Below are positions 9,690 through 64,000 of a stretch of 64,000 bases of DNA, one piece after another. Below the pieces are notes generated by a model, which was not told where the DNA came from, did not search any database, and saw only the letters and a list, made by a program, of their open reading frames with translations. Every line of letters begins with the position of its first letter. Position 1 is the stretch's first letter. The stretch covers positions 64,220,221 to 64,284,220 of the forward strand of contig NC_069372.1 of assembly GCF_021730395.1 (NCBI RefSeq), in the 5' to 3' direction. The stretch comes from Mercenaria mercenaria. Taxonomy: Eukaryota. Both the position numbers and the translations under genes were made by a program.

Positions 9690-11874
9690 TAGCTCCTTAC
9701 CAGGTAGAGATACCTTAAAATACACCTAAAATTGGAAAGTAACATCTATGTTGTACCACAGAAAAGTGGTCTTGTTTTTTCCCTACGGTCAATTATAAAA
9801 ATGTTACAATATAAGTTATTTATAGTAACAACTAAGGAAAGTTAATTTAAAAAAAAAAAAAAAATTGTAAATGCACACAAAAATCTTTACCAGGTAGAGA
9901 TTGGTCAAAATACACCTCAAAATTGGATGTAGCATGCATGTTGTACTACAAAAAAGTGGTCTCGATTTTTCCCTACGACTAGTAATGAAAAAGTTACAAT
10001 AAAAGCTATTTAAAGTAACAAAAAGGGAAGTAATTCTAAAGAAGGGAACTGCGCATGACACTTCGTCTCATGATGGTGTATAATTGTGCCAAGTTACATC
10101 AAAATCCCTCCATGCATGAAAAAGAAATGCTTCGGGCAAAGTCATTCTTGTATCTGACCTTTGGCCTCTGTGACCTTGACCTTAGACCTAGGGACCTGGA
10201 TCTTGCGCAAGACACTCCGTCTCGTGGTGGTGAACATTTGTGCCAAGTTATATCAAAATCCCTCTATGCATGATGAAGAAATGCTCCGGACAAGGTTTTC
10301 ATTCTTGTATCCTTTGACCTCTAAGTGTGACCTTGACCTTAGACCTAGGGACCCAGTTCTTGCGCATGACACTCCGCCTCGTAGTGGTGAACATTTATGC
10401 CAAGATATATCAAAATCCCTCTATGCATGAAGAAGATATGCTCCGGACAAAATTTTTTAAGAAAATATGATAAAGGGGAATAACTCAAAAAATAAGCAAA
10501 AAATAAGCAAGGTAGAGTTATTGTTCTTGCACACTGCACTTCCTCCCAATGTGTTCTATCAGTGTATGAAGTTTGAAGAAAATCCCTCCAGTACTTTTAG
10601 AGTCATGCTCCGGACAAAATTTTTTAAGAAAATAGGATAAAGGGGAATAACTCAAAAAATAGGCAAGGTAGAGTTATGTGTTCTATCAGTGTATGAAGTT
10701 TGAAGGAAATCCCTCCAGTACTTTTGGAGTTATGCTCCGGACAAAGATCGTTGCGCACGCACACACGCACGGACGGAGAGCATTTCTAAGATCCCCTTCG
10801 CCTTTGGCGGGGGGATAATAAAGGGAAAAGTGACCACTCCCCCTGGCAGCCATGTTTTTTGACGAATCAGAATAATTTGAACAATCTTGGTAGAAGGGCA
10901 CACAAGAACCATCTGTGTAAAATTATTTTAAAATCGGGCTAGCAGTTTCACACAAGAAGATTTTTGAAGTTTCCACTATATACATGTAGTGAAAAGTGAC
11001 TGCGCCCTCTGGCTGCCAAGTTTTTTGACAAATCAAAAATATTTGCACAATCTTGGTAGTGGGGCAAACAAGGACCATTTGCTTAAAATTATTTTAAAAT
11101 CGGACAAGCAGTTTCACACAAGACTTTTTTTTTAAATTTCCACTATATACATATAGAGAAAAGTGACTACGCCACCTGGCGGCCATGTTTTTTGACGAAT
11201 CAGAAAAATTTGAATAATCTTGGTAGAGGGTCACACAAGGACCATGTGCATAAAATTATCTTAAAAGCGGGCTAACAGTTTCACACAAGAAGATTTTTTA
11301 AATTTCCACCATATACATATAGGGAAAAGTGACCACACACTCTGGCGGCCATGTTTTTTGACGAATCAAAATAATTTGAACGATCTTGGCAGAGGGTCAC
11401 ACAAGGACCGTTTGCGTAAAATCATTTTAAAATTGGCCTAGCAGTTTCACACAAGAAGATTTTTTGATATTTCCACTATATACATATAGGGAAAAGTGAC
11501 CACGCCCCCTGGTGGCCATGTTTTTTGATGAATCAGTATAATTTGAAAACCTTGGTAGAGGGTGACCATTTGTGTGACATTATTTCAAAATCAGGCCATG
11601 GCTTTGGCTACCTATCTAACTTGGCCGAGGACTTACTGGCAAACACATTTTGTTCAAGTTAGGTGAAGATCGGATGAGAAATGTTCGACTTAAAGAGTGC
11701 GGACAAGTGTGTATGGAGCGATTTTCAGTAACTCGAGGGCCATAATTTCGAAATGCCTGTGCCGATTTTGCTCGTTATCGAACTTGGCCTTGGACTTATT
11801 GTCAAACACATTTTGTCCACGTTTGGTGAAGATCCGATGAGAAGTGTTTGACATAGAGCGTGGGCAAGATTTGT

Positions 11875-11910
<36 letters not shown>

Positions 11911-11960
11911 CAGCAGTAAATCAATATATCTCCCACACCACTATGTAGTGGGAGACATTA
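9690..11960. mobile_element. Composite repeat block A. Module 9690..10040 is a terminal region with a duplicated ~170-bp sub-unit and A(16). Module 10040..10440 is ~3.5 units of a ~115-bp satellite (gtgaccttgaccttagacctagggacc...). Module 10440..11560 is ~165-bp arrays (gtgaccacgccccctggcggccatgttttttgacgaatcag...). Module 11560..11960 has 2 units, then (CA)13, then a hairpin terminus tctcccacaccactatgtagtgggagacat.
   Basis: Periodicity read directly. Block A' at 34960..36390 is the reverse complement of modules 1 and 2. The hairpin terminus recurs at 57505..57550. Confidence 0.7.
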
Positions 11961-12722: not shown

Positions 12723-13599
12723 CTGCAAAGAAACAAACACTAATTTAATGTTACTAAATAATAATTTTGGGTTAAAACTGTGCCCAAATTCAAATGAAAA
12801 ATAAGTGTTTTCCCAATTTCAGAGCTAAAATTCCCAATATCATAAAAAAAATACAGATTTAAAAGATGACATAGTCTCAGTCAAATATGTCAGATTGCAC
12901 AAGTTGAGGTATACTTGCCAAAACATTTCCGAAGGAGTATACCCTGGACCCCTCTAGAGACTTCTCTTGCCCCTACATCCAAAACCTTGACCCACATTTG
13001 GTAGGTGCCGACTATTGAACTCTGCCCAAAAGAGTTGATATATTATTGTGCTAATTAGGTGACAACATCATGCCGGACATGTCATTAAGTTGACAACTGG
13101 TTTGTTACAGGATGACAGTTGTCCCAAGCAGTTTGAATACAAAGGGATTTTGCAGGACAGATCTGAATCTGCACTAAAGCAGTACAACTGGGTAACTATC
13201 TGATTATTTTCAATGTCTTGCTCAGAAAAACATGCATATTATCACTTTCATTTACATAATTACATGTACAGTTTGGGCAGTCAGCAAGTTACTTGAGAAA
13301 ATTCTTCAAATTCAGTACAAATACCATGGCAGAATGATGAGTGGCTGTCATCACTAGCCTTGAACCATATCTACATGACCTACTGGCTATAATTTTTCCC
13401 TACTCATGCTCCTGAAAAAGTTAAGCTCGAAAACAGTTTTGAAAAGTGTATCAGGGCTTTTCCCCCATCAATAAATCTACCTCTAGAAGAAAGGAAGTAA
13501 TCCCAAAGCAAACAAGAGCTGGTAGAACCAGAAATGCCCCCTTGATGCATTCAGTAATTGCACAAGGAACAGAAATGATTTGGTCACTATACACAAAAG

Positions 13600-14220
13600 T
13601 TCTACTGTCCTGGATCAATGTGACCTTTGACCTTAAAATCTATAGGGGTCGTCTGCTGGTCATGATCAACCTCCCTATCAAGTTCGTGGTCATAGACCCA
13701 AGCATTCTCAAGTTATTGTCCGGAAACCATTTAACTGTTCCGAGTCACTGTGACCTTGACCTTTGGCCTACTGACCTCAAAAGCAATAGGGGTCATCTGC
13801 TGGTCATGACTAACCTCTCTATCAACATCCATCATCCTAGACCCAAGTGTTCTGGAGTTATCATCTGTAAACTGTTTAACTGTTCTGACCTCAAAATCAA
13901 CAGGGGTCATCTGCTGGTCATGACCAACCAACTTTCAACCTCCCTATCAAGTTTTGTGGTCATAATAGGCACAAGCGTTCTCAAGTGGGGTCATCTGCTG
14001 GTCATGATGAACCTCCCTATCAACTTTCATGATCCTAGGCCCAAGTGTTCTCAAGTTATCGTCTGGAAAAGGTTTAATTGTTCCGGGTCACTGTGACCTT
14101 GACCTTTGACCTACTGATCTCAACCTCAATAGGGGTTATCTGCTGGTCATGACCAACCTCCCTATTTACTTTCATGATCCTAGGCCCAAGCGTTCTTGAG
14201 TTATCATCCAGAAACGGATT
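13600..14220. repeat. Tandem array B, ~120-bp unit (caggggtcatctgctggtcatgaccaacctccctatcaa...gtgaccttgacctttggcctactgacctcaa)
   Basis: About 5 units seen directly. ORF 13446..14096 (216 aa) is a periodic translation of this array. An inverted partner lies at 33770..34200. Confidence 0.85.
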
Positions 14221-23879: not shown

Positions 23880-24860
23880 GGCTACCTTAGCAACAGACCA
23901 CAGCAAGTGCTGGTAGATGGAAAATCATCCAAGCCTGCCCCCGTGACCTCTGGCGTTCCCCAGGGCACAGTTCTCGGCCCTTTGCTGTTTCTTGTCTACA
24001 TCAATGACATGCCCGGCAAGGTCAGCTCACCGTGCAGACTGTTTGCTGATGACTCACTACTTTACCGAGTGATAAAGGCAGAAACAGATTCCACAGCCCT
24101 TCAGGATGACCTTGACCGCTTGCAGGAATGGGAGAAAACCTGGCTGATGGAGTTCAACCCAGACAAATGCGAGGTGGTGCGATTTTCAAGTAAACGAAGA
24201 ACATACAGGCATCATGCTTCATCCATGGTAAAGAATTACGGACCATCAAAAAGGCAAGGTACCTTGGCGCCACACTTTCTGATAACCTCTCAAGGAACAA
24301 TCATATTTACACAATCTGCTGCAAGGCAAACAACACCATTGCCTTCCTCAGCCGAAACATGTCTTCCTGCCCCAAGACCATCAAGGAGGCTAGCTACAAA
24401 ACATACGTAAGACCACAAGTGGAATACGCACCCACCATCTGGGACCCATACACCCAAGCCAATGAGACTAAAGTTGAAGCAGTTCAACGACGAGCCACCA
24501 GATATATATCTGGAGATTATTATCAAAGGAGCAGCGTTACTGCCATGCTTGACACACTCGGCTGGGAACCACTACAGATCAGGAGAAAGCAGGCCAAGGC
24601 TGTCGTGTTGTCCAAGAGACCCTTACCTGAAACCTCAAGGATCTTCCACGAGGGGCCACTCAATGCAATTTGTTGTTCCTTTCTGCCACATGAACGCCAT
24701 GAAAGAGTCCTTCTTCCCGTCCGCCATCGCACTGTGGAACAGACTCCCTGACAGTCTGGTCTCGGCACCCACCTTGGAAGCATTCAAGGCCGGGATCTCT
24801 AAAACAACACTCTAAGCCGACTGAAAATAGTTTTCTCCTGTTTTTAACCTTGGGTACCCT
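23880..24860 (+). mobile_element. 5'-truncated, frameshifted non-LTR retrotransposon (LINE) fragment: RT domain (SGVPQGTVLGPLLFLVYINDMP...LFADDSLLY...) plus C-terminal region, spread across three overlapping frames
   Basis: ORFs 23907..24410, 24359..24751 and 24462..24815 together align to the intact-looking RT at 30055..31551. FADD motif present. A (GAA)n stretch follows at ~24940. Confidence 0.85.
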
Positions 24861-29899: not shown

Positions 29900-31715
29900 T
29901 TTTTGATTTTGATGTTGACAACGCATATTTTTTTTTTCAGTCTCAGCAGTGCCGGACTCTACTGTATAGGATTGAATCTGTTTTTTCCCGTCCACAACCA
30001 CTCAGCCTTAAGCAACTATCGAAAAGTGCAGCCTCCACTCCTACCCACCCGCCTATGTCTCCAATAAGTATAAGTGTCGAAGGTGTAGACAAACTACTTC
30101 TAGGTTTAAACCCGCATAAGGCATCAGGGCCAGATGAAATCTCACCCAGGTTACTTAAAGAACTACATAATGAAATTGCCCCTCTTCTAACAGTCATCTT
30201 CCAGCGGTCACTTGAAACTGGCATTATTCCGAACGACTGGAAACATGCGGTCATAGCACCAGTTTTCAAAAAAGGTCAGAAATCTAAACCCAGTAATTAT
30301 AGGCCCATCTCCCTGACTTGTATAGCATCCAAATTATTAGAGCATATACTAGTCTCCAACATAATGTCATACTTCGACAAGAACAACGTCCTTAGCCCAC
30401 AACAACATGGTTTCAGGTCAAAACATAGTTGTGAGACCCAACTCATAGGTTTTACCCAAGAAATAGCAGATAATCTTGAAAAAGGTCAACAAACTGATGT
30501 AATTATTATGGATTTTAGTAAAGCCTTCGACAAAGTAGATCATCATAAACTGATTCACAAACTCAAATACCTAGGTATTAATAATAAGGTCACCGCATGG
30601 GTTAAGTCATTTCTCAGTAACAGATCTCAGAAAGTCCTTGTTGAGGGTAAAGTCTCTGAAAGGTTACCTGTCCTATCAGGGGTCCCCCAAGGCTCAGTCC
30701 TTGGCCCCTGCCTATTTCTCGCCTACATAAATGACTTGCCCAATAGTATCAAAAGTCGAGCCCGTCTCTTTGCTGATGACACCATTGTCTACCTTACCAT
30801 CAAATCTAAATCCTCTGCAGAAAGCTTACAGCAAGACCTCTACTGTTTAGAAAAATGGGAAAAAGAATGGTCAATGGAATTTAATCCCGATAAATGTGAA
30901 GTTCTTAGAATATATCGTAAAAGAAATCCTGTTATATATCCTTACACCCTACATAATGTCCAACTTCAGTCCACTGACCATGCAAAATATCTTGGTGTTA
31001 CCCTAAATAATAACTTGACCTGGTCAAATCACATAAATAACATAACATCCAAGGCCAGTAATACCCTTCGCTTCATCAAAAGGAATGTAAAGACTACCAA
31101 CAGACAGGTTAAAGAAATGGCCTACAAAACCTATGTCCGCCCCCAGGTCGAGTACTGTTCCACGGTCTGGCACCCCTGGCAAAAATATCTAACTCATAAA
31201 GTAGAAAGGGTACAAAGATCTGCAGCCCGCTATGTTTTTAATGACTACCAGTATACCAGTAGCGTCTCAGATATGTTATCTGAACTAAATTGGAAGACCC
31301 TAGAACAAAGAAGAAATCATTCCTCCCTGGTTATTTTCTATAAGATAAGAAATGAATTAGTGGCTGTGGACCATCATCATCTCACACAGACACGAAATTT
31401 AAATTACTTAATTCCCCAGTCCAAAACGTCGTACCATGCAAATTCCTTTTTCCCCAGGACTATCAGACTATGGAACAGTTTACCAACATATATCCAGTCC
31501 AGTCCCAATTTGCAGACATTTGTCAGCGGGCTGGACTCGCAGTCTCTCTAAATACTATAATCCGCTGATTTTAAACTGTATACTTTGGGTCTTTTATCTT
31601 TTTAATTTTGCACATAACATTTTTACTAAAACACTGTTTCCTGACAGCGCCTGCCAGTCATAATCGCTAGACGATTGTTCGGCAGTAGATAGTTGAAGTT
31701 GAAGTTGAAGTTGAA
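29900..31715 (+). mobile_element. 5'-truncated non-LTR retrotransposon (CR1/L2-like by domain layout: RT + C-terminal extension, no endonuclease) with a (GTTGAA)4 3' tail at 31690..31715
   Basis: A long ORF with RT motifs. A microsatellite 3' terminus is typical of CR1/L2-type LINEs. The clade assignment is an inference. Confidence 0.75.
30055..31551 (+). CDS. Reverse transcriptase ORF (498 aa) of the LINE copy. Motifs NYRPISL, FDKVDH, SGVPQGSVLGP, LFADD, plus a C-terminal YKTYVRPQVEYCSTVW...FFPRTIRLWNSLP domain
   Basis: ORF track plus motif reading. There is no upstream endonuclease domain, so this is an incomplete element. Confidence 0.85.
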   Translation: MSPISISVEGVDKLLLGLNPHKASGPDEISPRLLKELHNEIAPLLTVIFQRSLETGIIPNDWKHAVIAPVFKKGQKSKPSNYRPISLTCIASKLLEHILVSNIMSYFDKNNVLSPQQHGFRSKHSCETQLIGFTQEIADNLEKGQQTDVIIMDFSKAFDKVDHHKLIHKLKYLGINNKVTAWVKSFLSNRSQKVLVEGKVSERLPVLSGVPQGSVLGPCLFLAYINDLPNSIKSRARLFADDTIVYLTIKSKSSAESLQQDLYCLEKWEKEWSMEFNPDKCEVLRIYRKRNPVIYPYTLHNVQLQSTDHAKYLGVTLNNNLTWSNHINNITSKASNTLRFIKRNVKTTNRQVKEMAYKTYVRPQVEYCSTVWHPWQKYLTHKVERVQRSAARYVFNDYQYTSSVSDMLSELNWKTLEQRRNHSSLVIFYKIRNELVAVDHHHLTQTRNLNYLIPQSKTSYHANSFFPRTIRLWNSLPTYIQSSPNLQTFVSGLDSQSL

Positions 31716-36390: not shown

Positions 36391-37777
36391 GAAAAATAAA
36401 AGAATTTCAATAATTTCTAAAAAAAAACATTGTTAACAACTAGAAAATTAAAATTCCATTTGCAAATACAGGTGCTAGTGTAAAGAAATTTGCTGTGACG
36501 GGCGTATATTGTGACATTCTGGCACTCTTGTTCATGATAAACAGTTCAAACAATTGTTTTTGAAATAACACAGATGTTCACTGTTGTTTTTGTTATAAAG
36601 AAGTTGATGTAAAAACATAAATAGAACACAGTGATCTTGAACTTTTTGGAAATGTTAAATTGTGAAATGGTGGGAAAATTCTGTCATTGAACTTCATCTT
36701 AGATAGGAAGAAAAGTAGAAAATCTTTCTTAGTCCTGCTATATTTCATTGCTGTTCTTGATATATTCTTTTGTTTATAATTTACTAACTGTGAAAAGTTG
36801 AAAACATCTGTGACAAAACACACTTGGGACAAGAAAGTGATTGTTTCAAAAAAATTCATACAGTAGTACTTTAAGTATCAACAAGTCATGATATTGTACA
36901 AAGTATTTCAATGTTGTTATTATTTCTTGTCCTTTAGAATCATTGTGTTCATTCAATGCACTTTCATTTATAATAGAGTTCTGCTTGAGCAGGTGCTTGG
37001 TCTACGGGGCACATGAACAGACTGACGGTCAAACTGATTTTTTTTTTTTTGGCTTGCTTCCTGTGCTTCCAAAGGTTCTTTGTATCGATTTATTTGATAT
37101 CAGCATGGCTCAGAAATAAAAACAAATAAATTTACTAGATCCTAGTAATTACCAAACTTTTTCTTATTTGAGATAATGATAATTGATCCGGTTTCAGTTA
37201 CATATTCTCTAACAATGGAAAAGGTTTAATTTGCAGTTCACCTATTGTGCAATATGTTGTGCCTACATGATCGTTATTATAGTAAACAGAAATATTATAT
37301 TTTGATCAATTGCCAAGAAAACAAGAACGAAATGACTTGTTACCAGATATAGAATTTTTCAAAAATGACGCAAGATATTATCTGCCAGCTTTATTTTGTA
37401 AAAGGCAATTACTTTCTGTTTACAAGGTGTAATGTTATTTATTTTTGTGTGGACTGCACTCTTAGAAAATATTTTGAAAAAATAATGGATTTAAAGTTAT
37501 GCCTTAACTTTACTACAGTTTTTTTGCTGATGTTTTTTGCTTAAATAAAATAATGATTAATTATAAATGCTTTAATTACTAATTTTATTAAAAATATTGA
37601 GACTTATTCATGGCTTCTCTAGGCGGGATCTGATTTAATTAAGGCTTGAATAAGCAACATCTTGGTTTAAATTAATGGCTAACACCTCTATATCTTTTAG
37701 TTTCTAGTATTTAGATATTGATTAGTTAATATTTCTACTTTCAGTTTCTCTAGACAAGAAGTAATTTGCCGGCAACA

Positions 37778-38033
37778 ATGAAAGTTCAGTTAGAGGTATT
37801 ACTTTCTCAGCTCGGGAACCCAGGGCGTTACCAGGTCTTCATATTTCTGCTCCTGTGCCTGAACTACTTTCCATTAGTGTTTAACCATGTCATCATGGCC
37901 TTTTTCGGATCCAGACCAAAACATCAGTGTTACTCAAGTGCTTATTTGCCTGGTACCGTGCAGGATAGTGTAACAGACTTCAGCATGATACAGATGAATT
38001 ACACTTCACTCGGAAACAATGCTACAGTTACTG
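37778..38033 (+). CDS. SLC22-family organic cation/anion transporter, exon 1 (MKVQLEVLLSQLGNPGRYQVFIFLLLCLNYFPLVFNHVIMAFFGSRPKHQCYSS...TVTG)
   Basis: N-terminal GxxGRYQ motif and TM1 typical of SLC22. Donor ctg|gtaagt. The track ORF 37766 starts at TTG; ATG is at 37778. Confidence 0.8.
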
Positions 38034-38454
38034 GTAAGTGGTTAAAGGTCACTAACTTAAATCCTAGTGTGACATTTCAGAGACAGTTAATCACTTATCC
38101 TACAGCAGTTTATCACTTGCACTAGTTTATGACTACCTACACCAGCAGTTCTGCTGATTGATGAAAACTGAGAAAGAAAACATGGGACTGAATTCTTACT
38201 GAACTTAGTAAGTCAGCGCTGATCTGCATAAAATTCTAATATGCATATCTTACTTTTTCAGCTCTTCAAACCCCTAAATATAAAGTAAATGAATTAAGTG
38301 TAAACTTGTTTTATTTTCTGCTTAAAATTATTATTGCAGTAAAAATGTCATTAAAGTGCCTATCCTTCATAATTAGGACTTTTCATTCATACTTCCCCTA
38401 ACAACAGGCCTCAGAAAAATTATGGTAAGAACTGATTGCTTGATTTTTTTCAGG

Positions 38455-38659: not shown

Positions 38660-38890
38660 TTGTTGTTTTTGTTGTTGTTAGGTTTAATGTCACACCAACA
38701 CAATTATAGCTCTTAATTAATGGTGAAGGAAGACCACAGGTGCTCTTACAGGCATTCTTTGTATCATGGACAGCACCTAGGCACCTGGGTAGAAGTACCT
38801 ACCCTCTGTAAACCTGTTGGATGGCCACCTCATATGAAAGAATTCTACACCACAAGTTTGGTTGCGAACCCAGACCTGTAAAAAGCAAGA
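38660..38890 (-). mobile_element. tRNA-derived SINE copy in intron 2 of the transporter gene (minus orientation; (AAC)n-like tail at 38660..38680, GGTTCGCAACC box near 38870)
   Basis: Shares the body with the copies at 43071..43230 and 56850..57100 (...gaagacc.caggtgc...ataattgtgt..gtgtgac.ttaaacc). Confidence 0.55.
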
Positions 38891-43070: not shown

Positions 43071-43230
43071 GGTTTAGCGTCACACTGACACAATTATACG
43101 TCATCTGGTGACTTTCCATGGTGGAGGAAGACCCCAGGTGCCCCTCCATGCATTATTGCATCACAAGCGGGCACCTTGGTGCCCTGAGTGAGGCTCGAAC
43201 CCACATTGGTGAGGGGCAAGTGATTTGGAG
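43071..43230 (-). mobile_element. SINE copy, same family, in intron 8 of the transporter gene (GGGTTCGAGCCTCAC B-box-like on the minus strand)
   Basis: Alignment by eye to 56850..57100 (+). Confidence 0.55.
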
Positions 43231-52380: not shown

Positions 52381-53399
52381 CCGTTCATCAGGGGGTTTTA
52401 ATAAATGTTCCCAATAATGAGACGATATGCTTTGCGAAGGTCCCAGTCCCCAGGTCAAAGGTCAAGGTCACACATGGAGGTCAAAAGTTGACATGTTTTA
52501 ACAGGATCTGTTTTATATCTGGTCCAGAACTCTGCCAGTCATCAAAGGATAGCACAAAAGTTATCCATAATTAGGCAACATGTATGTAAAAGCCAGTCCC
52601 AGTCTAATCACATGTGGAAGTCAAAGATCAAAAGGTTTTTCCCCTGTCCGCATCATTGCGCAACCATCTATCCAAGGAATTTAATATTACCTTGCAGATT
52701 TTTTTCCATAACTAAACACCTTGTCATATACAACACACAGTCCATGAGGTCAAAGGTCACGGTCACACTTGTGAGGTCAAATCTTTTAAGTTCCTTAGTC
52801 TTGTCTTGTCATTAACTTTGTTATTTGATATACAAATAATTAGGCACAAACATTCACCATAACAAGACAATATGTCTTGTGGAACACCAAGACCACTAGC
52901 TCAAAGATCAATGTCGCCCATGGAGGTCCTGTTAACTGTGTCCCGTTTTGACATGTTACCTCATTAAGTTATGTTGCTGTTGAGATAATGTGTCCCCTTC
53001 GGGTAGGGGATACTGTACTGAAAGGCAACGTTTCTTATATACTTGTTTTCACGGGGACCACACAACTAAACAAGGCACTTCAAAATAATGTTGAAAATAC
53101 AGACACTTCCCACAAATAGATTAAAAGTAGGTTCAGCTCCTTATCTTTATAGATCCAACAAAAGCAGGAATATGACAAAGAAGGAGGCTTTCTGTCATAT
53201 ATGTTCAAGGCTAGAGTATCTTCATGCGGTGAGATCAATGGTGTAATAGTAAATAATATATATTCTAATCCCATGAAGGATGGCAAATTGTAACTTTACC
53301 TCTAATCACTTCTATGAGAAAATACTAGTTATTCTGACACACCGTTTGAACAAGTCAACTTTTGTATTTCTTCATTTATTGATTATAACACTAATGTTT

Positions 53400-53580: not shown

Positions 53581-53955
53581 GTTTTTCCAGGAAGCGGACT
53601 CGAGAGTGGTTCCAATAAGCTTGAAGCTTTCATCACAATCGAGCTAAAACAAAACAAATTCGTATACACTAAATTTATGCGCAATAAAACTCGGCAAAAC
53701 AAATAATTTCTATCGGTATACGTATACAAAAATAAAATGTAGTGAAAATTACCATTTTATATAACATTGCATGACAAAAAGACAATATGTTTTAATTGCC
53801 CCTCCTTGTATAACTGATGTTGTTCTTTAATAATCATAATGTCATTCTCTTTTAATTAATTGTGTATTGTGTGGATGTTATGTATACGTGTGACTTTGAT
53901 ATATGATATTTTTGTTTAAGGATGAAGAGCGTAAGCTAACGTCTAAAAAAGATTT

Positions 53956-54190
53956 GAGCCGTGCCATGAGAAAACCAACATAATGGGTGTGCGACCAGCA
54001 AGGATCCAGACCAGCCTGCGCATCCGCGCAGTCTGGTCAGGATCCATGCTGTTCGCTTTTAAAGCCTATTGGAATTGGAGAAACTGTTAGCGAACAGCAT
54101 GGATCCTGACCAGACTGCGCGGATGCGCAGGCTGGTCTGGATCCATGCTGGTCGCACACCCACTATGTTGGTTTTCCCATGGCACGGCTC
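53956..54190. mobile_element. Palindromic hairpin MITE, copy 2. Arms are near-identical to copy 1 (4324..4557). The central loop is the reverse complement of the copy-1 loop.
   Basis: Arms ggatccagaccagcctgcgcatccgcgcagtctggtcaggatccatgctg present in both copies. Loop gcttttaaagcctattggaattggagaaactgttagc is the reverse complement of gctaacggtttctctaattgcaataggctttgaaagc. Confidence 0.85.
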
Positions 54191-54587
54191 ATTTGTTCTC
54201 ATCAGTGTTTGTTGTTCTGTATAATTAAGCGGTGTATAAGTAAGTGCTTGCCTTTGGCCTGAACTAAAGAGAGTAGTAACACACACAACATGATCATAGG
54301 CAGTATTTCGGTCTTTTTTTCACACCAGTAAAATGATTTACCTTCACCATTTACGCTGAAGTGTCTTGCACTGCAAAGTATGATACAAAATAGTATCCCA
54401 ATTTTCCTGAAAGATCTTCAGTGGCCGTCTCCTAACTTTAAAGTTTGTTATCTCACATGCTTTGTGATAAAATGGGAAAAGAAAAGAAAATGTTTGGGTA
54501 ATCAATTTAATCTTTATTTAAGTCATCTTTTAATGTAAACATTTATTACAGCTTTTAATTACAATGTTATTGTAGCCACACAGAGTT

Positions 54588-54809
54588 CTAGGGTTTAAGT
54601 TTCCACACACGAATATAATCAACCTGCATCGCAGCGTCTTCTCCATTATTTTTGTCCGCTTGCCACGTTGGATACCACTGACCACGTGCATTCCAGAAAT
54701 CACGTGCTGTGAATTCTGACTTATCGTTCCATGGTTTTCCTGTAGGACTGACAAATTTATCGGGGAAAAATCCCGTTCCTCCAATAGCAACGTTCATTAT
54801 CAGGAAAAA
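54588..54809 (-). CDS. GH16 beta-1,3-glucanase / LGBP-like gene, exon 12 (last): FFLIMNVAIGGTGFFPDKFVSPTGKPWNDKSEFTARDFWNARGQWYPTWQADKNNGEDAAMQVDYIRVWKLKP*
   Basis: C-terminal motifs of invertebrate GH16 glucanases (NVAVGG.GFFPD, KPW, DFW, W.PTW, QVDY[IV]RV). Minus-strand acceptor ctttttcag|ttt. Confidence 0.85.
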   Translation of the reverse strand, partial: FFLIMNVAIGGTGFFPDKFVSPTGKPWNDKSEFTARDFWNARGQWYPTWQADKNNGEDAAMQVDYIRVWKLKP

Positions 54810-55439
54810 CTGAAAAAGAAAATATTTTCACATCGGAATTTCAAAAGAATTGCCACTGGTGTTTTAACTTATCTTAATATATCGCTTACTCGACACTTTT
54901 CTTTAAACTATAATGATACGAGTTTGATTAAAAAAGTTGCTATCGATTTACATTTTAATTCTGCCCCATTTGAAATATTGAGACTGAAACACGCAGTGAA
55001 AGCGCATAAATATAAAAAAGTTTTGCTACACAGAACATCATAATCTATCTAACTGGTCTAATAAGCGCCCGATCCTAGACTTGACAAAATTATTCGAAGG
55101 GTTGAAAACCATGACACCAGCATTAAAACCTGTCACAAAACTCACATATCTGGTCGAGTGTTTTTCAGAACACTCGAAGCTGACCAGTTGCAATCTAAAG
55201 CTCTATTTCATATGCAGTGCAAAGTAAAGTTTATGTCGGAATCCAACAGAATTTTACAAGAACTTTGACAGTCGCTGGCTTGAGCCTGATGGGTGTAGAT
55301 GTAGTATGAGTCATACAGTAAACATAAAGTCGTGTTAACAAGAAGATCACGTTAACGCACTTGTTTCATATATTTGCACGACATAAGGCATATTTCAACC
55401 CTATAATGCATAACTAAAACAAGTTTATTTTTAAAAAAA

Positions 55440-55550
55440 CGCATATATAAAACAAGTTTGATAATCGCATAACTAAAACAAGTTTGATAAACGCATAACT
55501 AAAACAAGTTTGATAGGCTTAAATAAAACAAGTTTGATAGGCTTAAATAG
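55440..55550. repeat. 4 x 23-bp tandem (gcataactaaaacaagtttgata) in intron 11 of the GH16 gene
   Basis: Seen directly. Confidence 0.85.
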
Positions 55551-55701
55551 AAAAGCGTTAACACATGTTTGTTTCCTGTTACAGCGTCGGGATTCGTTGG
55601 TGCCCTTGCCCAAACGGACTCAGACACCAACCAGACTCTGGGGATTTTACAGGATATTACAACACGAGAAAATGTGCGTTATCCGTGCAATATAGCCCAA
55701 C

Positions 55702-55834
55702 CTCTTTATCAAAAGGCGCCATTTTAGTACCAGCAGCCCAGGGATTTTCAACACCATCCTTGTCCAGCTCGCCGTACTCCCACATGTTTGTCTGTGGTGT
55801 TACATTCAGGACCTCCGTATCGTCGATTGAAATA
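55702..55834 (-). CDS. GH16 gene exon 11: (S)ISIDDTEVLNVTPQTNMWEYGELDKDGVENPWAAGTKMAPFDKE
   Basis: I.F.VD...V.P...NPW....MAPFD.EF pattern. Acceptor ggtttacag|t, donor gag|gttggg (moderate). Confidence 0.75.
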
Positions 55835-56274
55835 CTGTAAACCACAAACAGATATAATTCATGATTATAATAAGTGTATGCATATTATACGTGCACATTT
55901 GATTGTAACATTTTCAAATTGCAAAATCTATTCTTGAAGGATGGCAAATTGTAACTTTACCTCTAATCTTGGTATCAAACTTTGATAAAAATCTAAGAAG
56001 TGGATCATCACGCCAGAAGACTAAGTTTTCGTTCACATTTCTTTAAAATTTAGCACTCTTAAAATTCTTCTTTTTTCCTGTTGAAGAATTGAATAAATTC
56101 ATGTGCATTTGGTGTTTGCTGAAATATATGGCGGAAATTTGAATTTTTTTTTTGCGACGTTCAAAAACGTTTTAAACAGATTTTTTTTTGTCAAGTAATT
56201 GACATTTATAAAGAATGAACGTTTTTGACCTGGCTATGAGCAGAAGTTTAAAAACTTTGCGAAGCGCACTATAC

Positions 56275-56346
56275 CTGATATGATCTTCGTCCCAGATGAG
56301 AACGTATTTATGGAATGAATCTCCGTACGTGCCAGAGGACGCCAAC
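56275..56346 (-). CDS. GH16 gene exon 10: (K)LASSGTYGDSFHKYVLIWDEDHI
   Basis: FH.Y.L.W..D.I motif. Acceptor cacacacag|g, donor tcag|gtatag. Phases match the neighbouring exons. Confidence 0.75.
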
Positions 56347-56849
56347 CTGTGTGTGATACACAACAGAAAAAACTTCTTAAACAGAAAAATTGACTATTTG
56401 TACATGTTCCCAGGTTTGAAAAGATCATTGATTCATTTCATTGTTGTAAGGTGACGCCGTTACAATTCAGTTCATATAGAGACTTTCCAGCTTTCACGGA
56501 GAACGAAGGCCACAGTAATCTATCTTGGCAGTACGGCACTTGAATTTAACAAACTTCCACAAGAAAGCGTTATACACTTTAGACTGTGTCCGTGTTCAAA
56601 GCAGTGAGTATGTTCGATGCATGAGCTTACATTACACACTTGGTCAAAGACGTCTTCATTTTGATTCATGATATGACATCTTGAATATCTTTCTGATTCA
56701 ATAACTTGACTAATTCATTCAGATAGAATTCATAGTCGAGTAGTTGTTCGAGAAAGTTGAAAGAAAACAAGAGAATGTGTTGTTACAAAATGATTTCTTT
56801 ATCAGTCAAAGTAATTGGGGGAGTGGGGGTACGGAGGGGGTGGGGGTGG

Positions 56850-57100
56850 GGAGGGCTCAATGACCGGGCGTTAAGGTCGCTGGCTAAAAATAATTGCCCA
56901 TCACCATGCAATGTCGGTTCGAGCCTCGTTTGGGGTGAGTTCTTCATGTGAAGACGGTGAAGGTCGGTGTTTCTACCCAGGTGTCAACCAGTGATAAAAT
57001 AATGCACAGAGGGGCACCTGCGTCTTCCTCTGCCGTCAAAAGCTGGAAAGTCGCCATATGACCTATAATTGTGTCGGTGTACCATTAAACCATTCAAAGT
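56850..57100 (+). mobile_element. tRNA-derived SINE (family 1, + orientation; GGTTCGAGCCTCG box; body shared with 43071 and 38660 copies) in intron 9 of the GH16 gene
   Basis: Alignment by eye. Confidence 0.55.
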
Positions 57101-57339
57101 AATTAGGATTAGTTCGGAGTCAACGATAATGGTAAAGTGCACAAATACAAAATAAACTAGAGCTGCTTTTGAGGAAAGCGCCTGTCTCCCACAACTGCAG
57201 TAAGTCTGCCTTTATATACTGTTTACTCACAGAAAATATACCTTTGGTAAGTTTTGGAGTAAATGGCGTTAAATAGTTTTGAAGTAAGTTTTGGAATAAG
57301 CGGCCTATCGGTAAGTTCTTGAGTAGCGGCCTATCGGTA

Positions 57340-57550
57340 ATTCAAGGGCCATAATTCTGAAGTGCCTTAGCTGATTTGGCTAGTTATCGAACTTGACCGA
57401 GGACTTATTGGCAAACACATTTTGTTAAAGATTGGTGAAGATCGGATGAGAACTATTGACTAAGAGCGCGGACAAGATTTGTGACAGACGGACATGCAGA
57501 CAAGAGTAAATCAATATGTCTCCCACACCACTGTTTGGTGGGAGACATAA
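57340..57550. mobile_element. Repeat module ending in (CA)-poor variant + hairpin terminus atgtctcccacaccactgtttggtgggagacat. Same module as 11690..11960.
   Basis: ggccataattctgaagtgccttagctgatttggctagttatcgaacttgaccgaggacttattggcaaacacattttgtt...gatcggatgagaa shared with 11560..11960. Confidence 0.7.
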
Positions 57551-57624
57551 TGATAACAGTATTATCATAATAATATGGGAAGGGGGTTGTTTAAGGCATG
57601 AACAACCAAAACGCAAAACTATAC

Positions 57625-57742
57625 TTTTCTCCGTGCGCCTTCGGCCATTTGTTGTGCCAGAAATCTGATCCAAAGTGCAGAGTACTGCCAGCATTGTCTA
57701 TGCCTTGTGAATGTCCCTTGTCGTCTTGGTACTGACGGTTGC
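57625..57742 (-). CDS. GH16 gene exon 9: (G)NRQYQDDKGHSQGIDNAGSTLHFGSDFWHNKWPKAHGEK
   Basis: RGN...STLH[WF]G motif. Acceptor ttaccag|gc, donor aaaa|gtatag. Confidence 0.75.
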
Positions 57743-57864
57743 CTGGTAACGAAATAATGCATATTTGCGTTAAACTGAAAATGATCGCCAAGCGCGTTAC
57801 TTGTAAAATTCAATCTTAAAGGGTTTTAAAAATGTTTAAAGTCATAAATAACTTATCAACTCAC

Positions 57865-57942
57865 CTCTGGCCTCAACGATGTCAATTTCTCCGGAAGCTG
57901 GCCATCTTCCATAAGCGTTTCTTAAGGGCAACATCCAGATAG
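57865..57942 (-). CDS. GH16 gene exon 8 (catalytic): AIWMLPLRNAYGRWPASGEIDIVEAR(G)
   Basis: GH16 active-site motif E-I-D-I-[VM]-E with both glutamates present. Acceptor tttcccag|ct, donor agag|gtgagt. Confidence 0.9.
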
Positions 57943-58755
57943 CTGGGAAAGACAAGGAATATAATGCAGGACCTATATGACTATGTATTTATTTTTAATT
58001 TAACAAAACAACGTAAAGGCTTTTTGAGCATACTAAAACATACAATACTTAACCTTCATTTACGCAAAACTGTCACTTTTATGATTTCAAAAAATCAATT
58101 CAGAAAACATGATGATGTTACAGTCATATTTTGCTGTAAACAAGCGTGTAGTTTATAGTTGCTGGGATAGCAAAATAGTACGAAGTTTTCAGGCATAACT
58201 TTAGAAGTTTTAGTTTGACAAGGTCCAAACCGAACTACTTTTATTTTGTTTGTGTTAAGGTTCGTGTCCATGCAGCGTCGAAATTGCAACTACGAATAAA
58301 GTAATATTCAAAATACTTTTAAAACCATATTTTTTGTCATTCTCAGGCTCTCTTACTGCCTCTTCACGAGTACTAATAATGATCAAAATGAAAGATGAAG
58401 GTACATTTGTAGTAGGGTGGAGTATAAGTGTGCACTTATACTTCATTGCTATTTCAGTCTGCTACGTTTGGCGTCCAACGTTAATAACTCACTAGTATAT
58501 ATGAATGAATACTTTAGAACTCCTGCAATTTCAGGTCGAATTCTAAACTTGAGGGGGTTATGCAGTAGGATGCACTTATACTTCCTTGCTTTTGAGCTAG
58601 CTTTTATAGCGACGTAGTAGAGTGTCCGCCTTAGGTGTGAAAGGGCTCGGCATGGCTGAAGTATTTTCAGTCAGTTACACAACGACAGTGATATGTTGTT
58701 TGCTTGTAATTTACAGATTAAAACTTAGTGAATTACAAACTATTTGGTTTACTAC

Positions 58756-58938
58756 CTGGCCAGATCCAGTCTCCTGTGGGCATTTTAGCGCGAACTTCCA
58801 CTTTGCCGTATTTGAAGTTAAAGCCACGTGAACTGCGGAGTCGGGCCGACTGAATAGGGTTGATAATATGATCTGGTGTCCCGTCTCGCTTGCAGCCCCA
58901 GAAATTATTTCCTGTGCACACATCACCTGGTTGTGATC
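58756..58938 (-). CDS. GH16 gene exon 7: (G)SQPGDVCTGNNFWGCKRDGTPDHIINPIQSARLRSSRGFNFKYGKVEVRAKMPTGDWIWP
   Basis: CT....[FY]GC.R.G....I.NP..SARL ... YG..E.RAK.P.GDW.WPA pattern. Acceptor tttcctttcag|ga, donor ccag|gtagta. Confidence 0.85.
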
Positions 58939-59196
58939 CTGAAAGGAAACGATTTTTCAAAACATATTATTTTAGCAAAATACCTGTCGACTGCATGATA
59001 AAAATGCTCGATTTTTAAAACTACTCAGTTTTTTCATTGGATTGCAAATAGAAATGCTGATCATGCGGCATCATTTAGAACTTGTTTTCGTCAAGACTCT
59101 CTACTTTAGTAAAGTTGCTGATATTACCAGTACACATAAATTCGAGGAAATGAAGACATGTCAAAAGGTTCTTGTAACAAATCAAATGTAACATAC

Positions 59197-59263
59197 CCCA
59201 TATATCTAAAGATCCTTTTGTCAAGCTATCCGGCCCGTCATTGATTGTCTCGATAGTAAATGT
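59197..59263 (-). CDS. GH16 gene exon 6: TFTIETINDGPDSLTKGSLDIW(G)
   Basis: Inferred because exon 5 ends in phase 0 and exon 7 needs one upstream base. Acceptor ttattcag|aca, donor tggg|gtatgt. The LDLW-type motif precedes the CT..FYGC segment in GH16 glucanases. Confidence 0.65.
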
Positions 59264-59478
59264 CTGAATAATAAATCATCGAAAACATATAAAACTGAAA
59301 ACAGCTTGAAAGCGTACAAGCCTACAAAGTTCTATGTTTTATCAAAACAATACACATGTAGTTTTCTGTTTGGACCAATACCGTTTTATACCGTTTAATT
59401 ATAATCGTTTAAATTATGTTATTAAGTTCGAAGTCTCGAGAATGCCAAATAATGGTTTATGAGCGTGAAACATCTTAC

Positions 59479-59553
59479 CGGTTTTATAAATAATTTCCCA
59501 TCTCGTACATAACTGTTGGTGCGATTGTTGGTATAATACTGAAATTCCCAGTT
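59479..59553 (-). CDS. GH16 gene exon 5: NWEFQYYTNNRTNSYVRDGKLFIKP
   Basis: GN.E.Q.YT...N..V.DG.L.I.P motif. Acceptor tctttcag|aac, donor ccg|gtaaga. Confidence 0.85.
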
Positions 59554-59977
59554 CTGAAAGACATAAAAATAACGCAGTCTTCTAAATGCAAAAGATATCT
59601 GAAGTATAAATTGTAGACCCATATAAGTTCTACGATTTTATATAATAGTTACTGTTTGTAGTCCAGTTTTTTATTATTTCAAGAGATCGGAGAAAAAATA
59701 ATGTATTTTCTCAATAATAAAAATAGAAAATGGTTTTTATATGTCAGTGTATGACTAGCATTTCTTTCAAAATTTAGGAATGATTTTTCACTACTTTTAA
59801 AGAATGGACTCACTAAAACTCGTATGATTTATTATTATAACAGCCATCCGTATCCAGATTTATTTCCAGCTTCAGTACCTTATGTTGCCATCAATTATTA
59901 GGAATTGTATTCACTTTGTATCTATAGAAAAATCTTTCATGTTTCTTTTCTGCAACAAATTTAAAGCAAAGTCTTAC

Positions 59978-60408
59978 CCCGCCGCCGCTTGCAGTTATCT
60001 CGTGTTCCCAAACATCCAAATTCAAAAAGTCAAAATTGTCCTCGAAAATCATACACGGGAAAGTCGTGCATGTTAATTCTGATCCAGGTGGTCGTATTGA
60101 TTTTCCAGTACAACCGCAAGATCCTCCTGATGAAGTCGCTGTTTGGCTTGACGTTCCTGATAGGACATTATTTTGGGTGTTTTGTGTGCCGGAAGTGCCT
60201 GACTGCGTACCGGAAGTTGCTGTTCCAGAGCCAGAAATCGCAGATCCTGACGTTGGCTGCGAACCTGAAGTCCCGGACGATGTCTGATTTAAACTGTTAT
60301 AGTACGCCTGCATGTTACTTAAAACAGGATTTGCGGTCTTTGCCGGTGCCTGTGTTTGAGCATGCGTGGTAGGTCTTGTAGTAGTAGTTGTTGTGGTTGT
60401 TGTTGGAT
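59978..60408 (-). CDS. GH16 gene exon 4: Thr/Ser/Gly-rich low-complexity linker (PTTTTTTTTTRPTTHAQTQAPAKTANPVLSNMQAYYNSLNQTSSGTSGSQPTSGSAISGSGTATSGTQSGTSGTQNTQNNVLSGTSSQTATSSGGSCGCTGKSIRPPGSELTCTTFPCMIFEDNFDFLNLDVWEHEITASGGG)
   Basis: Part of ORF 59891..60439. Acceptor ttacttgtctttgaag|at chosen by phase. Donor ggg|gtaaga. The exon ends with the FEDNFD...W.HE.T.GGG start of the GH16 domain. Confidence 0.8.
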
Positions 60409-61070
60409 CTTCAAAGACAAGTAATAACATTCTTGGCACAATTTGATAGTTACTTCCCTTTAATGATAGTTACCTCCCCGGTCAAAACTGACCGCTTTTT
60501 TCATTCAGAACGGTAAATGCTAAGAAATCCGGTAGAAATCTACCAAAAACTGTCATATATAACAAAGATACGAAAAAACCTAATTTGTCTGTAGGAATTT
60601 GCATCACGCAAAAGTTTTCAAGTGTCTGGTCCGGGTCTCAAAACAGAACCAGGTCCAGCTAGTTGTTGCATTTTGAAATTCCATTAGGTAAAAAGTCATC
60701 ATTTTATTTGGTTTTACAAAGAACATATAAAAGAAAATAGAGACTATGCTTAATAGTTATACGAGATTATTATGTATCTATTTAGATTCTGAAACGCATT
60801 CAATATGTGCCGTGTTGAAACAGAACAAACAAGATAAACGAAAACTTATATTTTGCACTAATACATGACTTAATTAAGCAGCCACATGCCTTAAGCAGCC
60901 TCGGTATGTTACTCATTGATTGTCTGTTTTGTTTTTATAAGTTGTGTTTTCTTCAAAATGGAAACTACATTACTGTGTGAATTATAAGTAGTATGAAAAT
61001 GTATTTCTATTATAAACGAACGTCGATTGCAAGATGGCCACTTTTCGCGTGGAAATTTACATGAACTTAC

Positions 61071-61196
61071 TGGAAGCGGTCCAAGACTGGTCTTTCACTA
61101 GGTGACCCTGTCCATTTTGTATGTAGTTAAACCAGTAGTTTACAGTGTCCCCGGGTTTCACAACAACATTTGGGTTCTCATGCACCCATTCGTTAC
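61071..61196 (-). CDS. GH16 gene exon 3: (G)NEWVHENPNVVVKPGDTVNYWFNYIQNGQGHLVKDQSWTAS
   Basis: Resembles the N-terminal beta-1,3-glucan-recognition domain (betaGRP-N / CBM39-like: GD.I.YW.Y...G.G). Acceptor ttacag|gt, donor tcca|gtaagt. Confidence 0.65.
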
Positions 61197-62425
61197 CTGT
61201 AAAATCAGTAAGATATAATTATCACAACTACAACCAAAAAAACAATAAAAGCTTTGAAAAACAAACATATATGTCAAGGATAATCTCACACATGCAGTTG
61301 GCTTTCGTTGGTTAAAGTATGATTTAGCTATTGGTCGAAATCCCTTCCCTGACCTTTGACTTACTGGGTCCCAAAACTATAGGATCATCTTTTGATTACA
61401 TTCAATATTGTCTTCATCGAAATTTGATATTTTAAGATTCTTTTAAAGACCATCGTGCCTTGGAATTTTTGAGCTGTTGACGCCAAAAACTAGTTATCAT
61501 CTACTGAATACGATATTCCGTAAAGATCATTGGTATGCGAGACAGTGTGTAAATACGAAGTGAAAATGCTATGATACGATGCAATGTCATGATAATACAA
61601 TGTAAGAAACCATTTCTAGCATTGAAGTCACAAAGTACACAAAAAAGTACATCCACCAAACTTCTTACTGGTGACCTATGACTTTTATTGCATATCTTTG
61701 TTTCTTAGATGATTGTCCTTCAATATCCAAAGTTTGAAGAAATTCTGTTTTTGGGAAAAATTCCGCCTATCTCATTTACTGAGACTCTAGCGTACGCCTT
61801 TGAATAGGACTTTCTGAAAAATAAAACAATATCTCTAATCTCTGACGAGATAAGCCACAGTAAGGGGGCACAGAAGGAGGGAACGAGATTTTCTACTGGG
61901 CCTTAATTTGAATGGGAAATGTTTGATCTCAACAGACTTTGTGAGTCTAGTGCGATATATAACATCGCACTTAGTAACATCTAAAACAACAGTAAAAAAG
62001 AACAAATAACTTCCACAAGTACACAGACATGTTCCGGCCTTTGAAATAAACACCCAGTTTTATTTTAAAAAACAACAACAACAACAACAACAAAAATTTT
62101 TTTGATTGCATCCAGGAACCGACCTGAATTTGTAAACACTGGGTCTACGATTGATTAGTAATGGCTGGGAATAGCTATATAACTGAATGTAATTGCACTA
62201 TCACAATCTACAGGGTTAAGGGGTGAATCAAGGAGGACCATAACGGAATTTCTAGGCTGAAATTTGCAAACTTTCATGCCGCGGACATAAAATGTTGTGC
62301 CGCCCCTGAAGACACGACAAATCGGCAGGTTCCCAGGCGAAGAGGAAAACACTACATGTTAGAATTCAGCAACCATACATTGCAAGACTCATATTTATTG
62401 AAATATGATAAAGCTCATGAATTAC

Positions 62426-62527
62426 CAGTTTTTGTGTTGACATCAACCGCGAATTGACCAGCGGCCACTCCAGGTAACGGTGAATTAATGCTGTAGTGAA
62501 AGGAAACCAGGGATAAACCGTTGACAT
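62426..62527 (-). CDS. GH16 gene exon 2: (D)VNGLSLVSFHYSINSPLPGVAAGQFAVDVNTKT
   Basis: G[IL].LFAFHG.[IL]N......AG.[FW]..D[IV] pattern of betaGRP N-domains. Acceptor cgtttcag|at, donor actg|gtaatt. Confidence 0.65.
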
Positions 62528-62968
62528 CTGAAACGAAAGACACAAAATGTCAACTGTACTAAGCATTTTCTTTTTTAGATTTTTATTTGTCCTACACTGT
62601 GCAAAGCTAACACAGAACTTGAATTTGTCTTTTTATATTTCCATATTTCATTTAATTCACTAACGGTTATACATGTAGATTCGATTGGATACGGCCATCA
62701 GAAAAGCATGACATCTTGTAATTCGGCTCCCCATAAAGCTAAAACTCACAGTTGTATGGGATTGTCATTAACCACGAAGCAGATTCGAGTATAAAAAGCA
62801 CCCAATGTAGTCATACTTGACACCTTTTATATGTAGGGCCTATTTAAAATATTTCATAGCGGTTCCATAAGTGATGCCGCTTTATAGGAAGAAAGCAGGA
62901 AGTCCATTTAATCGAATTTTCGTCATAATTTGGTTAGTAAAGTATTTTGCTTCAAGCAGTTGCTTTAC

Positions 62969-63122
62969 CTGGAATGGCGAATCTGATTCCTTGCGGTTTC
63001 AGCATGCTGACTTTGGCATGTGGTGATGACGATGAACTGCCAAATTGCAAGCCCACGAAGCCAACTGAGGGTTTCACCATTAAGCAAACTACAACGAGCA
63101 CTAGCGCACCGAGTGAAGCCAT
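62969..63122 (-). CDS. GH16 gene exon 1: MASLGALVLVVVCLMVKPSVGFVGLQFGSSSSSPHAKVSMLKPQGIRFAIP (signal peptide + start of N-domain)
   Basis: A hydrophobic N-terminus follows the ATG at 63122..63120. The track ORF begins further upstream at 63224, but the signal-peptide logic favours this ATG. Donor ccag|gtaaag. Confidence 0.65.
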
Positions 63123-63349
63123 TGCTAGACTGCTACGCTTGAAAACACTTAAATAAAGATATACATTAGAACATTTCAAATCACTTGTCCTTCCTCTCTG
63201 TTGCACTTGGGGACTCCTAAACAAATATCTTCATGTATATATGGCTAGATACCCTAATGTCAAAATCTGGTCGTTTTAAATCCATGCAGCTGGGACGTTT
63301 TCAATATATGTTAGTTTAAACATATTTATTTTAGGTCGATTGTGAAGCA

Positions 63350-63560
63350 ATTTAAGTTCTATAACCTCGGCACCTCATTCCTGGTGGAATTTATCGCCAC
63401 GAGTGTATGAGAGAAGAGAAGCCAGTTTCCCCTTTAATGCTAAGTGCCAAGCAAGTGAACTATTGGTATACCACCTTTCACACCCGACCAGGGATCGAAC
63501 ACACGACCTCCCGAATTTGAAGCGGACGCTCTATTACTAGGCTATCGAGGCGGTTCAATC
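63350..63560 (-). mobile_element. tRNA-derived SINE on the minus strand (head gcctcgatagcctagtaatagagcg...ttcaaat...ggtcgtgtgttcgatccctgg; A-box-like TAGCCTAGTAAT, B-box GTTCGATCC; anticodon-loop remnant CAA)
   Basis: Manual parse of the reverse complement. The stems are degenerate, so this is not a functional tRNA. Confidence 0.5.
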
Positions 63561-64000
63561 CCTGTTAACTTCTGTACATGCGTCGGACAATATCCCCACA
63601 TGGGACAGAGGGATATGATAAATGACGGCGGAACTGAGACACCTAATTTTTAGTTAGTGTTGTATGGTTGTCGTTATATGTAGCATGAATAAGGTGACAC
63701 AGAGGTAAATGTTTTTCTCCTTAGAACTAAAAACAGTTAACTGATTACTTAATAGTAAGTTTAATTAATGCGAGCGCACTTCTATGTTTCATAGTTTTAC
63801 GGCGTTTTTTTTTCTTACGTTTTTCGAAGAATATATATTGTAATAAAAATCACAAAATATTCGAATAAAACTTCTATAGATTTAACCTGAATCTGTCGGC
63901 AAATTATTTTTTAACATTTTGATTTACGAAACATACATCAGCTTGAATTATACCCTCAGCATGTCTGTGGATACCCTCAGCGTGTCTGTGGATACCCTCA

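Follow-up and report, generated by a model that had tools for sequence, protein, structure and literature searches.

A 12-exon gene on the minus strand of the Mercenaria mercenaria genome, lying at positions 63122 to 54588 of the 64,000-nt window analyzed here (contig NC_069372.1, positions 64,220,221 to 64,284,220), appears to encode a secreted modular protein that is most likely a retaining endo-beta-1,3-glucanase targeted by a CBM39 module; we put the probability of this reading at roughly 78%. The protein would consist of five parts: a signal peptide, the CBM39 module, a disordered linker of ~105 amino acids, a short cysteine motif, and a GH16 domain of the metazoan laminarinase type. The GH16 cleft would cut the glucan chain by double displacement, with E398 as the nucleophile, D400 assisting, and E403 as the acid/base. 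Secretion, glycosylation, hydrolytic activity, and physiological role are what we infer for this product.

Several searches confirm the GH16 domain. Pfam Glyco_hydro_16 (PF00722) matches amino acids 349 to 486 (E = 4e-13, 49.6 bits versus a cut-off of 22), and a phmmer search of the C-terminal part against PDB returned GH16 beta-1,3(4)-glucanases and laminarinases (7wwc at 2e-19, 3iln at 6e-18, and 3azx at 1e-15); NCBIfam gave just a weak partial match to the bacterial EglC model, far under its cut-off. An AlphaFold model was built from an alignment of 32 full-length orthologues, with an identical database copy of the protein (P0121) as the first row. Its GH16 core has a predicted local distance difference test (pLDDT) score of 85 to 98 from about amino acid 360 on. 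The best Foldseek matches of this model in PDB are all GH16 laminarinases, led by 4bow at E = 3e-18, with E values for 4bow, 3iln, and 3azx ranging from 3e-18 to 2.4e-16 and target TM-scores of 0.68 to 0.74 for 3iln, 3azx, and 4dfs.

The active site is complete at the residue level. Both WIWPAIWMLP (amino acids 376 to 385) and GEIDIVEARGN (397 to 407) are in the protein, and GEIDIVE (397 to 403) lines up position by position with the SGEIDIxE found in solved active enzymes. Invariant across the 32-orthologue alignment are E398, D400, and E403, as well as W376, W378, P379, A380, W382, W393, and P394. The first and last Glu of the E-x-D-x-x-E signature are the nucleophile and the acid/base in GH16 laminarinases (PMC7551256), and the WPA...W...WP cleft pattern has been described for the laminarinase subfamily (PMC6827312). 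At a constant offset of 248, W378, W382, W393, and D400 correspond to W130, W134, W145, and D152 of the scallop enzyme Lcf, which bind the substrate, and E398 and E403 correspond to the catalytic E150 and E155 (PMC7551256). The initial annotation had named the GH16 hallmark motifs with both catalytic glutamates, and Pfam, the PDB alignment, and the invariance among orthologues all bear this out; its prediction of a catalytically competent enzyme is, from sequence, a reasonable one. The protein probably belongs to subfamily GH16_4, because its close homologues are, without exception, beta-1,3-glucanases or glucan-binding proteins of metazoans.

The N-terminal half carries a module of the kind found in insect glucan receptors. 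Pfam CBM39 (PF15886) matches amino acids 34 to 137 (E = 6.2e-25, 87.5 bits versus a cut-off of 25) and covers profile positions 3 to 106 of 107. Against PDB, phmmer placed the N-terminal part with the CBM39 of Drosophila GNBP3 and lepidopteran betaGRPs (3e-16 to 3e-14, including 3ie4 at 3e-16 and 3aqy at 3e-15), and AlphaFold modeled a beta-sandwich of seven beta-strands over amino acids 34 to 127 (pLDDT 84 to 94). A betaGRP-N/CBM39-like domain, as had been proposed, is thus seen alike in Pfam, in the PDB matches, and in the modeled fold. In the alignment to 3aqx, D80 falls on the Asp of '...wsrDit...', and it is invariant across the 32 orthologues; it is equivalent to Asp49 of Bombyx betaGRP, a glucan contact (PMC7915573), provided that the numbering of the crystallised construct is offset by 2 residues. 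Upstream of CBM39, amino acids 4 to 16 form a hydrophobic core that reaches 3.5 on the Kyte-Doolittle scale, and PSVG/F comes next. By this heuristic the N-terminus is consistent with a signal peptide, and what backs the earlier claim of one is the hydrophobic core.

Between the two domains lies a low-complexity linker, with 26 Thr, 20 Ser, and 14 Gly among the 109 residues of amino acids 128 to 236; the AlphaFold model is disordered over amino acids 131 to 238 (pLDDT 25 to 35). The linker had been described as a 143-amino-acid Thr/Ser/Gly-rich stretch in a single exon. Composition and single-exon coding hold, but exon 4 codes for 144 amino acids, of which just ~105 are linker; the last ~35 comprise the first GH16 strands and a conserved cysteine motif, SCGC (C225, C227) followed by C241 and C246. 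Likewise, the GH16 domain expected across exons 5 to 12 is found, but its start is already in exon 4. On heuristic grounds the linker is probably O-glycosylated, and NxS/T sequons occur at amino acids 168, 281, and 479.

For the gene model, the minus-strand sequence from 54400 to 63400 was read and the exons of the initial annotation were re-joined by script. The twelve exons (63122..54588) give an open coding sequence of 1761 nt, that is, 586 amino acids plus a TAG stop, and all 11 introns are GT..AG with pyrimidine-rich acceptors and consistent phases. The features are as follows.

62969..63122, minus strand: exon 1, 154 nt; ATG at 63122; signal-peptide-like N-terminus (amino acids 1 to 21) and start of CBM39; donor GTAAAG
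62426..62527, minus strand: exon 2, 102 nt, phase 1; CBM39 strands and D80
61071..61196, minus strand: exon 3, 126 nt, phase 1; C-terminal half of CBM39 (GDTVNYW...WTAS); the scallop exon is equal in size and phase
59978..60408, minus strand: exon 4, 431 nt; amino acids 128 to 271; linker, cysteine motif, and first GH16 strands (MIFEDNFD...ASGGG)
59479..59553, minus strand: exon 5, 75 nt, phase 0; GH16 (NWEFQYYTNNRTNSYVRDGKLFIKP)
59197..59263, minus strand: exon 6, 67 nt, phase 0; TFTIETINDGPDSLTKGSLDIWG
58756..58938, minus strand: exon 7, 183 nt, phase 1; GH16, last residues ...GDWIWP
57865..57942, minus strand: exon 8, 78 nt, phase 1; AIWMLP...GEIDIVEARG
57889-57887, 57883-57881, and 57874-57872, minus strand: catalytic codons of E398, D400, and E403, respectively, in exon 8
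57625..57742, minus strand: exon 9, 118 nt, phase 1; GH16
56275..56346, minus strand: exon 10, 72 nt, phase 2; GH16
55702..55834, minus strand: exon 11, 133 nt, phase 2; GH16
54588..54809, minus strand: exon 12, 222 nt, phase 0; GH16 C-terminus; TAG at 54590-54588
54542..54547, minus strand: candidate AATAAA polyadenylation signal, 41 nt past the stop, a motif match only; further AATAAA/ATTAAA motifs begin at 54559, 54534, 54518, and 54511

The assembled protein is identical to the M. mercenaria RefSeq protein XP_045173207.2 at 586 of 586 positions without gaps (BLASTP), which validates every junction at the protein level. The locus is the gene for XP_045173207.2 and is annotated in RefSeq with the same splice model, under an automatic name that is silent on the intact catalytic site. 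The 12-exon GT-AG structure first drawn by hand therefore agrees with both the re-assembly and the database product, including the exon 3/4 acceptor choice at 60408, which the RefSeq identity confirms, and the small exon 6 (59197..59263), which is also colinear with the protein of the Tapes cDNA and has a 61-nt equivalent in scallop. The length needed correction, from ~583 to 586 amino acids. No tandem paralogue was found in the 64 kb, since tblastn of the model returns just the 12 exons.

The exon structure is shared with a scallop. The Ylistrum balloti orthologue (P0012) mapped exactly onto its own genomic locus (L001), giving exons of 112, 99, 126, 312+128, 75, 61, 183, 78, 127, 72, 139, and 222 nt, and 11 out of 11 clam introns coincide with it in position and phase. 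The scallop linker exon is divided into the 312- and 128-nt pieces by an extra phase-1 intron (L001 13651-14543), which was either gained by the scallop lineage or lost by venerids. These results bear on whether the locus could be a pseudogene or a mis-assembled model with a fortuitous open reading frame (ORF), an explanation with nothing in its favor that was weighed just because the model had been assembled by hand and has a 67-nt exon. Clean GT..AG introns around an open 1761-nt frame, a product 100% identical to the RefSeq model, intron positions and phases conserved in scallop, and 94% identity in GH16 to the Tapes cDNA product all speak against that explanation, which we regard as effectively refuted.

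How is conservation distributed along the protein? The protein search returned 1388 homologues. The closest named ones are the beta-glucan recognition protein of Tapes literatus (AEE89455.1 / F6LP53; 81% identity over 99% of the query) and the LGBP of Meretrix meretrix (AGT42010.1; 85% overall identity; Liu et al. 2014, Genet Mol Res, as cited in PMC5549309), and a Dreissena polymorpha homologue is 69% identical. By domain, GH16 identity is 94% to Tapes, 91% to Meretrix, and 84% to Dreissena, compared with 77% (Tapes) and 51% (Dreissena) for CBM39 and 61% and 35%, respectively, for the linker; scallop, oyster, and sea-urchin orthologues are 55 to 66% identical to the clam protein in GH16. Such a peak of conservation in GH16 is the pattern that selection for catalysis would be expected to leave. 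The Tapes and Meretrix cDNAs share with the clam the CBM39-linker-GH16 architecture and identical WPAIWMLP and GEIDIVE motifs; they differ in small linker indels (61 to 73% linker identity to the clam) and in being named recognition proteins. A literature search on Mercenaria, glucan, and GH16 returned nothing relevant.

The same layout extends to another phylum. A Strongylocentrotus purpuratus protein annotated as 'beta 1,3-glucanase isoform X1' (P0041) combines CBM39, a linker, and a GH16 domain whose GEIDLVE is intact, as in the clam, at 47 to 51% overall and 55% GH16 identity, but its linker is shorter and it is without the bivalve cysteine motif. Bachman and McClay (1996) reportedly found the sea-urchin egg enzyme to be an active beta-1,3-glucanase; if so, an active enzyme with CBM39-GH16 architecture has long been known.

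The initial annotation had implied that a CBM39 module together with intact glutamates was something unusual, which did not hold: the combination is common among the best 120 of the 1388 homologues, on which the CBM39 and motif census was made, the gene is in RefSeq, and venerid cDNAs are public. Half of these 120 homologues (60) have a CBM39-like N-domain, and all 60 but one truncated gene model keep E-x-D-x-x-E, a count that allows the conservative variants EFDIME and EIDICE. Represented among them are bivalves, gastropods, a brachiopod, annelids, a nemertean, echinoderms, hemichordates, and tunicates, and in this sample CBM39 plus an intact E-x-D-x-x-E is the rule among non-arthropod invertebrates. 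In GH16_4, a metazoan/fungal subfamily, loss of a catalytic residue affects just ~9% of members, and 13 metazoan members have been biochemically characterised as endo-beta-1,3-glucanases (PMC6827312).

The claim, also made at the outset, that insect betaGRP/GNBPs have kept the N-domain but not the glutamates agrees with the literature (PMC3981738, PMC6403176), and this loss is a derived condition. Insect betaGRP/GNBP3 proteins (Bombyx, Plodia, and Drosophila; 3aqx, 3aqy, and 3ie4) resemble the clam protein in their two-domain layout, homologous CBM39, and contact Asp. They have lost the catalytic glutamates and glucanase activity (PMC3981738, PMC6403176, PMC7915573), whereas the clam protein keeps the glutamates, and they do not have its long Ser/Thr linker. 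By its residues, then, the clam protein is not an insect-type non-catalytic receptor, though a role in sensing glucan is still conceivable for it.

As to physiological role, digestion of dietary beta-glucan is favoured, possibly along with glucan recognition or clearance in immunity. Digestion would suit an animal that feeds by filtering, and it agrees with the abundance of GH16 endo-beta-1,3-glucanase transcripts in the oyster digestive gland (PMC5840672) and with the laminarinases of ~37 kDa purified from bivalve digestive organs, those of Tapes literata included (as cited in PMC7551256). An immune role would fit the Chlamys and Pinctada LGBP literature (PMC5877582). The mollusc digestive GH16 enzymes (Mizuhopecten yessoensis AAW34372.1, Chlamys farreri Lcf AMN92714.1, and Tapes literata) have the same EXDXXE and cleft Trp/Asp residues as the clam protein, which would be expected to share their retaining endo-hydrolase/transglycosylase chemistry.

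Some points weigh against a CBM39-targeted glucanase. Intact catalytic residues are necessary, not sufficient: the GH16-like earthworm CCF and crayfish LGBP are reportedly without glucanase activity. For both the signal peptide and O-glycosylation, the indications are heuristic only. The characterised mollusc laminarinases are ~37 kDa, single-domain, and without CBM39 (PMC7551256), whereas the clam precursor adds an N-terminal CBM39 and a ~105-amino-acid linker. The named orthologues, moreover, have been published as binding or recognition proteins (LGBP, betaGRP) and not as enzymes (PMC5877582).

This last point is where an LGBP/betaGBP-type receptor, non-catalytic or only incidentally catalytic, enters as an alternative. 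In such a receptor CBM39 and the GH16-like cleft would bind beta-1,3-glucan and lipopolysaccharide (LPS) and lead to agglutination or prophenoloxidase-type responses in the haemolymph, and the glutamates would be retained for something other than bulk hydrolysis. The LGBP or betaGRP annotation of the closest named orthologues and the conserved glucan-contact Asp of CBM39 are in keeping with this, as are the LGBPs of Chlamys farreri and Pinctada fucata, which are inducible by bacteria or LPS, CfLGBP also binding and agglutinating (PMC5877582). However, GH16, every catalytic and cleft residue included, is conserved above CBM39, a pattern difficult to account for unless catalysis is under selection, and insect receptors devoted purely to recognition lost these residues (PMC3981738, PMC6403176). 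A receptor of this kind is therefore unlikely, in our judgment.

The size of the known mollusc enzymes raises another explanation, that the clam product is a pro-enzyme from which proteolysis in the linker/cysteine-motif region would remove CBM39 and linker and free a GH16 enzyme of ~38 to 39 kDa, equivalent to the ~37-kDa laminarinases of bivalve crystalline styles and hepatopancreas. The glucanase cDNA of Spisula sachalinensis is reported to encode a 444-amino-acid precursor of a 316-amino-acid mature enzyme, which we count on this side, and a long linker modeled as disordered should be accessible to proteases. The GH16 part of the clam protein (amino acids ~247 to 586, 340 residues) matches the purified mollusc enzymes in size (Lcf, ~37 kDa; PMC7551256), and an endo-1,3-beta-glucanase has been the subject of a paper on Tapes literata, from which the closest homologue comes (as cited in PMC7551256). 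Yet the conservation of CBM39 (D80 invariant, 77% identity to Tapes) argues for a function in the mature product, and the separate GH16-only genes of many molluscs (P0022, P0028, P0038, P0048, P0060, and P0070) could supply the 37-kDa enzymes; on balance we doubt that the precursor is processed in this way. Tentatively, the protein might also be truly dual-purpose, either as a catalytically active glucan sensor or as a pro-enzyme yielding the 37-kDa crystalline-style laminarinase. As a sensor, its CBM39 would recognise microbial or algal beta-1,3-glucan and its GH16 domain would process it, freeing soluble oligomers or clearing the ligand.

Two interspersed repeats that recur elsewhere in the window lie in intron 9 (57624-56347), and intron 11 has a tandem array.

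56854..57091, plus strand: putative short interspersed nuclear element (SINE) in intron 9, antisense to the gene, with tRNA-type A-box-like and B-box motifs
57334-57548: second repeat of intron 9, unrelated to the putative SINE, matching 11603-11958
55438..55539: tandem array in intron 11 (Tandem Repeats Finder period 26, 4.0 copies, 86% matches, score 144)

The A-box-like GGCTCAATGA of the putative SINE begins at 56854 and its B-box GGTTCGAGCC at 56916, both on the plus strand; they are followed by 56975-57091, which matches 43071-43180, with a partial copy also at 38681-38715. ARAGORN found no tRNA in the window, and Rfam had no match at the intron 9 repeat. The SINE proposed for this intron thus has box-like motifs and further copies in its favor, but neither program recognises a tRNA in it, and a degenerate tRNA-derived SINE is a plausible description. 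The second repeat corresponds to two adjacent partial copies ~46 kb away (11603-11958; 76 to 87% identity). The intron 11 array had been reported as a 23-bp minisatellite; it is real, with units that measure 24, 24, 26, and 26 bp by eye, that is, 24 to 26 bp. Intron 2 has an (AAC)7.7 microsatellite at 62071-62093, and an exact 34-bp match between 55935-55968 (intron 10) and 53274-53307 (downstream of the gene) is probably a repeat fragment.

Elsewhere in the window, an inverted repeat at 53955-54191, ~400 bp downstream of the stop codon, has 103-nt arms with 97% complementarity and a 31-nt loop, and a 31-nt palindrome at 54090-54155 is nested in it; this is probably a miniature inverted-repeat transposable element or a foldback element. 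Rfam (E<=1) gave two far-sub-threshold microRNA matches at 54080-54162, outside the gene, with mir-1253 at 29.9 bits versus a gathering score of 103. On the plus strand, a 498-amino-acid ORF at 30055-31551 contains a complete reverse-transcriptase domain (RVT_1, E = 9e-40), and a shorter reverse-transcriptase fragment at 23907-24815 (E = 1e-12) is followed by overlapping ORFs; both are copies of non-long-terminal-repeat retrotransposons. Upstream of the gene, a 21-bp tandem repeat of at least 2.4 copies (63950-64000) runs off the window end. Two further plus-strand ORFs are without a Pfam match: one of 216 amino acids at 13446-14096, with repeated 'NRGHLLVMTNL'-like segments, is probably a tandemly repeated DNA element and not a gene, and one of 119 amino acids at 37766-38125, with a TTG start, no ATG, and a hydrophobic segment after ~20 amino acids, looks by eye like the first exon of a membrane transporter.

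The gene is an ordinary one: public databases already cover it along with its splice model, family, and architecture, and keeping the catalytic site is both ancestral and common outside arthropods. If the dual-purpose possibility is true in its pro-enzyme version, it would tie the bivalve 'LGBP/betaGRP' literature and the 'digestive laminarinase' literature to one gene.

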